Positions 43,332-44,145 of a stretch of DNA of 64,000 nt are shown piece by piece. Source of the stretch: a virus (taxonomy: Duplodnaviria > Heunggongvirae > Uroviricota > Caudoviricetes). The position numbers and the translations under genes are program-made. Below the pieces are notes generated by a model, which worked only from the letters and a program-made list of their open reading frames with translations, had not been told where the DNA came from and made no database searches. Location: positions 1 to 64,000 of the IMG/VR virus record IMGVR_UViG_3300033069_001798; one strand, 5' to 3'. Position 1 is the stretch's first letter; each line of letters starts with the position of its first letter.

Positions 43332-43591
43332 TTGAGAGGGCACTCCAGCTTTTTGGCAGTTGCATGAAGATCATCGATCGACATGGATGACTGAATCTCT
43401 CTGTTGAACCTCCACTGTCGATTTGCCATCAACGAGTACCTGCCGGTGTAATCAGCGCGGGTGATGAAGCAATAGTCTGTTCGACCGTCAGCTTTGATGA
43501 CGAAGACGCTGCATGCGATCAACCCGGCCACGATGACAACTATGAAAAGAGTCGTAAGAGTGGCGAAAATATCATCCATAGAAATCCTCAT
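43328..43591 (-). CDS. Small membrane protein (1 TM)
   Basis: ..IFATLTTLFIVVIVAGLIACSVFVI..; ATGA overlap with the Pol X stop. Confidence 0.5.
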   Translation of the reverse strand: MRISMDDIFATLTTLFIVVIVAGLIACSVFVIKADGRTDYCFITRADYTGRYSLMANRQWRFNREIQSSMSIDDLHATAKKLECPLK

Positions 43592-44145
43592 TTTGCTTTG
43601 ACTGCCTTTGAACTTGTTCGATCGCGCGGTTCAACCCACTGGACACCGAGCAAATCGAAGAAATCTCGCTCCTCAGGAACGTGAACTTGTGTGCCATCTG
43701 GCCGCGTTGGCAAGCAACCCAGCATCCGGCCGCCGCCAGAAACTTTCTTCCAAATCGAAAACATCTTCGGAACAAACCCACCGTGGACGTTACCGTTTGG
43801 TGCAGTTGCAGACCCAGTTCTCATGCACAGCAACGAGCCCCAGTTCGCCGGCGTTGCCACGAAGACATCTAGCTTGATTCCTTCTTCAAGGAGGAGGCGC
43901 AGGTACTTCGCACCAACCTTTGGTGGCCATTCGATGATGTCAGGAACGCCAGGCTTGATGAACTTTCCTCGCGACCGAAGAGCACCAAAGAGAGCCTCGT
44001 AATCATCAACAATGATGACAAGCTCGATGTCTTTGACTGTCTCCTTCTCACGGCGGACTGACCCAGCGATCTCTGCTCGCTTCACTGCTGGTCCGATGAG
44101 CTTGAGCAAGGATTCTCCGATGCTACGAGCCTTCGACAGTTCCAT
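43588..44145 (-). CDS. Minimal family-X DNA polymerase (185 aa, ASFV Pol X-like)
   Basis: IAGSVRREKETVKDIELVIIV matches ASFV AVGSLRREEKMLNDVDLLIIV. KLDVFVATPANWG matches QLDLFTALAEEKP. ERDFFDLLGVQWVEPRDR matches EKELIKELGFTYRIPKKR. Palm plus thumb only; no 8-kDa or fingers domains. Confidence 0.7.
   Translation of the reverse strand: MELSKARSIGESLLKLIGPAVKRAEIAGSVRREKETVKDIELVIIVDDYEALFGALRSRGKFIKPGVPDIIEWPPKVGAKYLRLLLEEGIKLDVFVATPANWGSLLCMRTGSATAPNGNVHGGFVPKMFSIWKKVSGGGRMLGCLPTRPDGTQVHVPEERDFFDLLGVQWVEPRDRTSSKAVKAK

Follow-up and report, generated by a model that had tools for sequence, protein, structure and literature searches.

Minimal Family-X Polymerases and a Phage-Encoded Relative

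Among viruses, family-X DNA polymerases (PolXs) have been given only for African swine fever virus (ASFV) and giant viruses (PMC11646218), and a review of phage polymerases names no phage PolX (PMC8775771). ASFV Pol X (O174L, 174 aa; PDB: 1JAJ, 5HR9) consists of a palm and a thumb only, and the literature treats it as a unique "minimal" DNA polymerase. In the 64,000-nucleotide stretch of DNA analysed here, positions 1–64,000 of the IMG/VR virus record IMGVR_UViG_3300033069_001798 (Caudoviricetes) and referred to below as the window, a 558-nt open reading frame (ORF) at 43588–44145 on the minus strand encodes a protein of 185 aa, termed mini-PolX, which follows the same palm-plus-thumb plan and falls in the same class of ~170–190 aa; it is encoded by a bacteriophage, whereas ASFV is a eukaryotic virus. 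An original prediction made from the sequence alone had taken this ORF for a minimal family-X polymerase, and searches, a structural model and an alignment confirm the family-X fold and motifs. The reading frame and the selection on it, the predicted fold, the domain boundaries, the conserved residues and the gene neighbourhood identify mini-PolX, at the level of sequence and model, as a stand-alone palm-plus-thumb family-X nucleotidyltransferase, and the design for which ASFV Pol X is known is here common rather than singular.

It has been reported that ASFV Pol X has a 5′-phosphate pocket formed by R125, T166 and R168 and an H115–R127 platform for the dG:dGTP mispair (PMC5330486). A 2026 census of bacterial polymerases described a further group, PolX2, which has neither the 8-kDa nor the PHP domain, keeps a conserved polymerase site and carries an extra α-helical C-terminal domain; it occurs in bacteria, archaea, eukaryotes and viruses and is experimentally unstudied (PMC12926913). 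Giant-virus PolXs (Mimivirus, Faustovirus, PgV) sit in virus-encoded base excision repair (BER) gene sets (PMC5537341, PMC11646218, PMC13252658), and an engineered truncation of Faustovirus PolX to its palm and thumb, of 19.8 kDa, shows template-independent addition (PMC13252658).

Reading Frame, Sequence Searches and Predicted Fold

The mini-PolX gene lies within a long run of co-oriented minus-strand genes. When it is compared with 97–98% identical copies on other contigs, 21 of the 28 nucleotide differences fall at codon position 3, and the codon changes comprise 18 synonymous and 6 non-synonymous ones; even at 55–65% protein identity, changes at position 3 are about twice those at positions 1 and 2. 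Because the differences concentrate at codon position 3 and are mostly synonymous, the minus frame is the frame under selection.

In searches with the single sequence, the Pfam thumb model DNA_pol_B_thumb (PF14791) matched aa 148–176 at E = 1.6e-5, with 25.1 bits against a cut-off of 25, and the palm model DNA_pol_B_palm gave E = 0.096, while the NCBIfam PolX model matched aa 20–182 (E = 1.7e-5) and T. thermophilus PolX was matched at E = 2.7e-6. With a profile of 101 sequences, the matches to T. thermophilus PolX (1.7e-14), Pol lambda (1.2e-12), Pol beta (2e-11) and Pol mu (4e-10) each cover palm and thumb through the C-terminus, and at this sequence level family-X homology is unambiguous. 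The Pfam thumb model detects 97 of the 101 relatives and the palm model 17.

An AlphaFold2 model built on the homologue alignment has a mean pLDDT of 96.5 and a pTM of 0.90, with no segment below 70. Its structural neighbours are exclusively PolXs, with a large drop to the MNT, KNT, CCA, TUTase and CD-NTase folds, and the next matches after the PolXs are Cid1 (7.9), LnuA (7.8), ANT(2″) (7.7) and MenT1 (7.5). Foldseek concurs with PolX as the nearest fold, and a BFVD search at E ≤ 1e-3 yields just 13 viral folds, most of them, the best ones included, giant-virus PolXs. The fold is nearer to PolX than to other nucleotidyltransferase (NTase) families, and the PolX-specific thumb is present, whereas the MNT, KNT, LnuA and MenT types are defined by an NTase core without that thumb and with a usual HEPN or other partner. 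The question raised with the original prediction, whether the best structural matches would be NTases of the MNT/KNT type, is therefore answered in the opposite sense, with PolXs on top and those NTases well below.

Domain Layout and Active Site

Residue correspondences were taken from a MAFFT L-INS-i alignment of 151 family members with ASFV Pol X (a sequence identical to that of PDB 1JAJ) and residues 149–335 of human Pol beta. Relative to ASFV Pol X, MAFFT places a 9-residue insertion in mini-PolX between T-G-S and helix N, and the correspondences in the helix-N region rest on the alignment across this insertion. The palm occupies aa 1–~112, and the thumb/nucleotide-binding subdomain, with a helix N equivalent, a β-hairpin and a terminal helix, occupies aa 124–176 (43618–43776, minus strand); its motif E159...F163...P173..R176 corresponds to E316...F320...P330..R333 of Pol beta. 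Mini-PolX starts where the Pol beta palm starts (residue ~149, or residue 148–149 of the Pol lambda construct) and ends 9 residues past the thumb at R176; therefore, by these alignment boundaries, it has no 8-kDa lyase, no helix-hairpin-helix (HhH) DNA-binding subdomain and no PHP domain, which bears out the earlier statement that the lyase and fingers domains are lacking. Membership of family X does not depend on the lyase and HhH parts, as ASFV Pol X is without them too.

The triphosphate-binding and metal-ligand motif spans aa 28–46 (GSVRREKETVKDIELVIIV; 44008–44064, minus strand) and is invariant in 25 close homologues. Within it, G28-S29/R31-R32 correspond to the triphosphate-binding G179-S180/R182-R183 of Pol beta, and the metal ligands D39, E41 and D93 correspond to D190, D192 and D256 of Pol beta and to D49, D51 and D100 of ASFV Pol X. 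The third ligand, D93, lies in LDVFVA at aa 92–97 (43855–43872, minus strand), where F95 aligns with Pol beta R258 and with ASFV F102, two residues that have been reported as equivalent (PMC5330486). M-R-T-G-S at aa 108–112 (43810–43824, minus strand) is the counterpart of Y271-F272-T-G-S in Pol beta and of H115-F116-T-G-P in ASFV Pol X; T-G-S is kept in the family, while the Y271 site is M, I or L and the F272 site is R109. V125 and F129 stand where Pol beta has N279 and R283, two residues that are not conserved. G28, S29, R31, R32, D39 and T110 are invariant in all 151 sequences, G111 is found in 150, and E41, D93, F95 and R109 are each found in 149; in the alignment of close homologues the invariant residues are G28, S29, R31, R32, K34, D39, E41, D93, F95, R109, T110, G111, E158, E159, F163, P173 and R176.

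The general NTase palm motif, hG[GS]-x9-13-D-h-[DE]-h with a third carboxylate on a later strand, is present (G28-S29...D39-I-E41...D93), and the three motif strings of the original prediction were all found by regular expression in both mini-PolX and ASFV Pol X. The canonical D-x-D pair of metal ligands is replaced by D-x-E in 149 of the 151 sequences, and an independent regular-expression count gives D-x-E in 145 of the 150 best matches. The glutamate had already been read from the single sequence (DIE rather than DxD); because the family shares it so widely, it is a hallmark and not a quirk of the window copy. As judged from the alignment, the hallmarks of the family are D-x-E, Phe at the Pol beta R258 site and Arg at the F272 site. 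Compared with Pol beta, the Arg and Phe flanking the second carboxylate are in effect exchanged (R258→Phe, F272→Arg), and we infer that R109 pairs with the longer side chain of E41; glutamate is chemically compatible with two-metal catalysis.

Comparison with Known PolXs

Overall identity between mini-PolX and ASFV Pol X is 19%. The BLASTP alignment is significant only at aa 15–52 of mini-PolX (~38 residues), the hhalign probability is 16%, and the family profile matches 1JAJ at E = 0.26, so the relationship that was first seen by eye over the whole length is not significant by sequence over that length. The ASFV 5′-phosphate pocket is absent, R125, T166 and R168 being replaced by K127, Q169 and V171; at the K127 position family members have A, G, R, K or E, and the V171 site is V, I or L in 145 of 151 sequences. 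The H115–R127 platform is also absent, the aligned residues being M108 and F129, and where ASFV Pol X has D-x-D, F116 and the C81–C86 pair, mini-PolX has D-x-E, R109 and no such pair. Because the significant alignment is short and both pocket and platform are lacking, the sequences indicate that mini-PolX is like ASFV Pol X in its architecture and fold but not closely descended from a common source; the proposed resemblance holds for the shared palm and thumb, and mini-PolX is not of the ASFV lineage. By profile, bacterial PolX and Pol lambda outscore ASFV Pol X, and mini-PolX is probably a reduction independent of it.

The best full palm-plus-thumb sequence matches are PolX1 (T. thermophilus, B. 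subtilis, D. radiodurans) and Pol lambda/Pol beta, which have the same catalytic and triphosphate-binding residues and the same T-G-S; mini-PolX differs from them in lacking the 8-kDa 5′-deoxyribose phosphate (dRP) lyase and the HhH, and from bacterial PolX also in lacking the PHP 3′-5′ exonuclease/apurinic-apyrimidinic (AP) endonuclease domain. PolX2, compared by its published description, shares with mini-PolX the absence of the 8-kDa and PHP domains and the conserved polymerase site, and its α-helical C-terminal domain is lacking in mini-PolX and in most relatives. Giant-virus PolXs retain the full 8-kDa–fingers–palm–thumb core, to which PgV adds a ligase module, whereas mini-PolX has palm and thumb only, and the nearest artificial analogue is the Faustovirus PolX truncation. 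In addition, Rhizobium jumbo phages (RHph_TM30, TM39, Y65 and others) encode a very distant homologue, a small "DNA polymerase family X protein" with 24–27% identity at 86–96% coverage.

Family Size and Distribution

An exhaustive hidden Markov model (HMM) search over 1.84 billion representatives (clusters at 50% identity) gave 6,513 matches at E ≤ 1e-3; a threshold of 1e-10 leaves 3,126 clusters, and one of 1e-30 leaves 68. The median length of the 150 top-scoring matches is 200 aa, and in the 143 relatives that were parsed the GS motif is preceded by a median of 28 residues, while the thumb is followed by a median of 10; a C-terminal extension of at least 50 aa occurs in 8 of these 143, and the extensions are heterogeneous. 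There are 58 metagenome homologues of 183–214 aa, several of them on contigs of 130–300 kb. Taken together, the sequences describe a very large family, separate from the ASFV lineage and found in phages and bacteria.

In IMG/VR, 281 viral contigs carry a relative of mini-PolX, and they fall into two tiers. A 98% identical copy is found on one UViG of 81.6 kb, and the tier at 50–60% identity is made up of jumbo phages, with contigs reaching 298 kb. The tier at ~35% identity (L036–L086) has proteins of 160–177 aa on IMG/VR contigs of ~40 kb, where the neighbours are DnaB, D12 and N6/N4 methylases, a lambda-gpA terminase, an integrase and SPP1- or Mu-type portals; with such neighbours, the tier consists of temperate-type phages, and it includes Mu-like phages (L065, with Mu portal and Mu F). 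All-versus-all clustering of 1,264 ORFs from this tier recovered only PolX (37 loci) and DnaB helicase (8 loci) as conserved, and gap filling after integration or transposition is conceivable there.

Meanwhile, 62 loci lie in bacterial assemblies (L088–L148 among them), from Flavobacteriales isolates, Patescibacteria/CPR, Chloroflexota, Planctomycetota and Verrucomicrobiota, and the ~35% tier is represented in the first four of these groups. One bacterial copy is on a 1.4-Mb Aestuariibaculum contig (L103), and the closest of these copies is 49% identical, on an 89-kb contig binned to Bdellovibrionota. Deposited phage genomes hold a homologue in 10 of 50,697 records, all of them Rhizobium jumbo phages with the annotation given above; megablast of window positions 41–47 kb against the same 50,697 records gave no match, and PHROGs has no family for mini-PolX or for any tier of relatives.

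Gene Neighbourhood in the Window and in Related Phages

In related jumbo-phage contigs the partner most consistently linked to mini-PolX is a 5′-3′ exonuclease/flap endonuclease (FEN), which lies 0.5–2.9 kb downstream of polX in 20 loci with 50–65% identity. An HhH-GPD glycosylase is found 3.4–8.7 kb from polX in ~20 related loci, often with a NUDIX gene between FEN and glycosylase, so that the linkage conserved among relatives is PolX–FEN–NUDIX–HhH-GPD together with UvdE or DenV. UvdE lies 0.6–2 kb from polX in L008, L019 and L020 and 8.6 kb away in L006, and it is replaced by a T4 DenV-type Pyr_excise gene in L004 (16117–16584) and L151 (16715–17221); with the window also carrying UvdE, the UV-lesion enzyme is interchangeable within otherwise syntenic islands. 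This comparative synteny is stronger evidence than the context in the window.

The window itself holds, all on the minus strand, UvdE UV-damage endonuclease (25506–26438; Pfam UvdE, E = 7.7e-53), an Fpg/Nei bifunctional glycosylase/AP lyase (30053–30868; Pfam H2TH and Fapy_DNA_glyco, NCBIfam fpg at E = 1.5e-33), an MBD4-like HhH-GPD glycosylase of 148 aa (31173–31619), a NUDIX hydrolase (32315–32878; Pfam NUDIX, E = 3e-20), a FEN (35648–36841; Pfam 5_3_exonuc_N at E = 1.1e-16, NCBIfam Pol I 5′ nuclease region/Xni) and an Rnl2-type nick-sealing RNA ligase (37655–38677; Pfam RNA_ligase PF09414, T4 Rnl2 2HVQ at E = 1.4e-6). The MBD4-like protein matches Pfam HhH-GPD and, over aa 8–143, the MBD4 domain in PDB (E = 3e-19); the match spans the whole MBD4 catalytic domain, and the residue aligned to the catalytic Asp is Asp. 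In MBD4 we take this catalytic residue to be D560, as counted along the C-terminal sequence of the 580-aa human protein. The FEN has 397 aa against 252–293 aa in relatives, and ~190 of its residues lie C-terminal to the nuclease domain. The RNA ligase lies 5 kb from mini-PolX and aligns over aa 43–303 with residues 33–300 of 2HVQ, covering both the adenylyltransferase and the C-terminal domain; 151 phage records contain a match to it, and in most of those listed the annotation reads RNA ligase or RNA ligase 2. The context first described for the gene is thus correct for UvdE, Fpg/Nei, the MBD4-like glycosylase and the FEN, and its "ligase" proves to be this T4 Rnl2-type RNA ligase. Among relatives, polX has Rnl2 nearby in just three cases: in the clade of the window, in L004, a 227-kb relative in which the order is Rnl2, a 109-aa ORF, PolX, GIY-YIG and FEN, and in L030, where it is 1 kb from polX.

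Immediately upstream of polX, and separated from its start by 16 nt, is a 135-aa ORF with DUF5049 (44162–44569, minus strand; Pfam E = 4.6e-7), which is retained upstream of polX in close relatives and also in L018 and L030. A split PolX, with this ORF as the 8-kDa/HhH half, was considered and is unsupported, as the ORF gave no PDB match, and its BLAST alignment with Pol beta residues 1–150 covers a trivial 9 residues. Downstream lies an 87-aa ORF with a hydrophobic N-terminal segment (43328–43591, minus strand), conserved in close relatives, whose ATG overlaps the polX stop codon (ATGA), an overlap that suggests co-transcription and translational coupling. Just beyond this putative operon partner, four tandem small ORFs of 96, 70, 70 and 75 aa (42212–43144, minus strand) are apparently paralogous and share an N-terminal "..PG(T/M)(L/I)(L/V/F).." start. 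As PADLOC gave no matches for PolX, Rnl2 or the upstream ORF, a role as an anti-phage defence component was rejected, and a tRNA-repair context is likewise unsupported, since the window contains no tRNA gene and the linkage to Rnl2 is sporadic.

A homing-endonuclease footprint is seen in polX of two close relatives, L149 (1685–3120) and L150. There, polX is complete but mosaic, its 5′ 309 nt being 94% identical to the window and its 3′ part resembling P0041, and it is followed by a GIY-YIG ORF whose last 58 codons are the displaced remnant of a window-type polX 3′ end; the same GIY-YIG gene lies between polX and FEN in L004. An intron in a relative's polX, considered after a GIY-YIG domain was seen fused to the PolX C-terminus in P0057, was discarded because no Rfam intron was found and the locus has a polX that is complete, though mosaic, next to a separate GIY-YIG gene and a displaced 3′ remnant. 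The repair island of L004 also holds a gene of the Thg1 family (3′-5′ tRNA-His guanylyltransferase-like; 19583–20389), near an ADP-ribosylglycohydrolase.

Proposed Role and Alternative Explanations

It is reasonably probable that mini-PolX is a distributive, proofreading-free and lyase-free gap-filling DNA polymerase, template-directed and working with FEN. In such an enzyme, G28-S29/R31-R32 would hold the triphosphate of the dNTP, D39, E41 and D93 would be the ligands of two metal ions, and closure of the thumb onto the newly formed base pair would take place without the minor-groove checking residues of Pol beta; because N279 and R283 are V125 and F129 here, low fidelity is expected. In the jumbo-phage lineage, mini-PolX would act alongside FEN and downstream of the lesion enzymes (UvdE or DenV-type, MBD4-like, Fpg/Nei). 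A UvdE nick 5′ of a UV lesion, or a gap left by glycosylase and lyase, would provide a 3′-OH, to which PolX would add one or a few nucleotides. The 5′ flap or blocked end would then be taken off by FEN, and the nick would be sealed by host LigA, by a ligase that the phage encodes beyond the window or perhaps by the nearby Rnl2. Because mini-PolX has no dRP lyase, FEN or the Fpg/Nei lyase would have to clean the 5′ end, and "flap-dependent" suits the presumed pathway of the window better than "short-patch". Parallels exist in the "gap translation" of Pol beta and FEN1 in long-patch BER and in the Rad2-dependent UVDE pathway of S. pombe. ASFV Pol X (PMC5330486) and the engineered Faustovirus truncation (PMC13252658) support the view that palm and thumb suffice for catalysis.

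Several points weigh against this reading. E41 as Glu and R109 at the F272 site are, judging from the alignment, unprecedented among characterised PolXs, and conservative D-to-E changes at these carboxylates cripple Pol beta. The net charge of mini-PolX is +7, against +19 for ASFV Pol X, and the family has a median pI of 8.4 with some acidic members, so unaided DNA binding may be weak. In the ~35% tier no repair genes stand beside mini-PolX, where DnaB, methylases and terminase are found instead, and sub-clade P0025 (L009–L017) also lacks repair neighbours. Among the ~50 larger ORFs scanned in the 64-kb window, which is part of a probably much larger genome, neither a DNA ligase nor an AP endonuclease of the Xth/Nfo type was found; of the self-contained short-patch repair pathway in the original prediction, the glycosylases, lyase, UvdE, FEN and PolX are in place, and these two activities are missing within that scope. 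A literature search found no description or characterisation of the phage mini-PolX family. FEN is also a replication enzyme, so PolX–FEN adjacency alone cannot separate repair from lagging-strand processing.

This last point leads to the explanation that mini-PolX is a replication accessory, filling gaps after FEN has removed RNA primers during Okazaki-fragment maturation. FEN is indeed the tightest and most frequent neighbour, the ~35% tier carries the gene in replication or early regions near DnaB and methylases, and the L152 element encodes a beta-clamp, a single-strand DNA-binding protein (SSB) and a helicase. Against this, the islands repeatedly carry UvdE, Pyr_excise, HhH-GPD, Fpg/Nei and NUDIX genes, which have no role in primer removal, Okazaki gaps are normally filled by the replicative polymerases themselves, and the C-terminus of mini-PolX shows no clamp-binding motif, so that a replicative role appears unlikely. 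A different possibility is repair with ribonucleotide patches, in which the altered sugar-selector motif, I/M-R-T-G where Pol beta has Y-F-T-G, would let mini-PolX insert ribonucleotides and leave a 3′-ribo nick as the substrate of Rnl2. The sole ligase of the neighbourhood is of the Rnl2 type and recurs near polX in L004 and L030, the Y271 and F272 positions are replaced across the family, and a published model pairs nick-sealing RNA ligases (Deinococcus DraRnl) with repair polymerases that insert ribonucleoside monophosphates (rNMPs), naming PolX as a candidate (PMC5397189); bacterial LigD is likewise invoked. Rnl2 is near polX in just 3 of ~30 related lineages, though, and 151 phage records carry Rnl2 against 10 with mini-PolX, with no overlap among the Rnl2 records listed. 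Sugar discrimination in Pol beta depends on backbone geometry, and because of this ribo-selectivity is not readable from side chains. Such patches are accordingly quite improbable, and it is similarly doubtful that the E41/F95/R109 rearrangement marks a mechanistically distinct family-X branch that inserts rNMPs or both sugars, with FEN trimming and Rnl2 sealing.

The remaining explanations question templated synthesis or catalysis as such. Mini-PolX might be terminal transferase-like or another NTase, serving in DNA or RNA tailing, RNA repair with Rnl2 or anti-defence chemistry: its D-x-E and its Arg/Phe swap differ from every characterised PolX, the template-checking N279 and R283 are not conserved, the truncated Faustovirus palm and thumb adds nucleotides template-independently and ASFV Pol X may itself have terminal transferase activity, and many of the phages that carry a family member have no repair genes. 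Since the structural neighbours are exclusively PolXs with a big drop to other NTase folds, the PolX-specific thumb is found in 97 of 101 members, neither a HEPN or other toxin–antitoxin partner nor a PADLOC match nor a tRNA gene was found in the window, and the conserved partners are DNA-repair enzymes, a non-templated role is highly unlikely. It would be more surprising still if mini-PolX were an inactive PolX remnant kept as a DNA-binding or scaffolding subunit. The D-to-E change could lower activity, but while mean column identity over the 151 sequences is ~25%, the residues that bind metal and triphosphate do not vary among them, as would be expected if selection maintains an active site. 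Gap filling together with FEN thus remains the favoured function of mini-PolX.

Implications

As far as could be found, the family, its active-site signature, its abundance and the repair island are undescribed and experimentally untouched, although mini-PolX is not categorically new because databases already label some members "PolX". The jumbo-phage island, with its FEN, MBD4-like and NUDIX genes and interchangeable UV enzymes, points to large phages having an excision-repair kit of their own. If ribonucleotide patching were true, it would be a virus-encoded excision-repair route that gives phage RNA ligase 2 a physiological substrate. In addition, natural polymerases of 160–190 residues are attractive scaffolds for enzymatic DNA synthesis, and a 2026 study had to obtain such a small scaffold by truncation engineering (PMC13252658).

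Other Genes of the Window

Two GIY-YIG/NUMOD homing endonuclease genes are present on the minus strand, at 16611–17480 and at 36796–37479, the latter lodged between the Rnl2 and FEN genes. The auxiliary genes, all on the minus strand, encode a GroEL-type chaperonin (23535–25160), an ADP-ribosylglycohydrolase (28729–29481), a papain-family protease (33490–34296), a carbon-nitrogen hydrolase (54928–55683) and an Fe/Mn superoxide dismutase (59738–60454), and such genes are typical of very large phages. The best phage match of the GroEL is just 46% identical, and because of this the phage of the window appears to have no close cultured relative.

A 439-aa protein at 60880–62199 on the minus strand joins a TnsA-like endonuclease N-terminus (E = 4e-5) to a dCMP/cytidine deaminase (E = 5e-23), and its gene adjoins a thymidine kinase gene at 62163–62732. 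On the plus strand, a 913-aa ORF at 12034–14775 matches MVP_shoulder (E = 2e-30), Vault_3 (5.7e-8), the Vault repeat (6.5e-6) and SPFH/Band_7 (4.3e-5); it lies in a plus-strand block with a GC content of 0.55–0.56 against ~0.49, and a homologue of the Major Vault Protein (MVP) is unusual in a phage-like genome.

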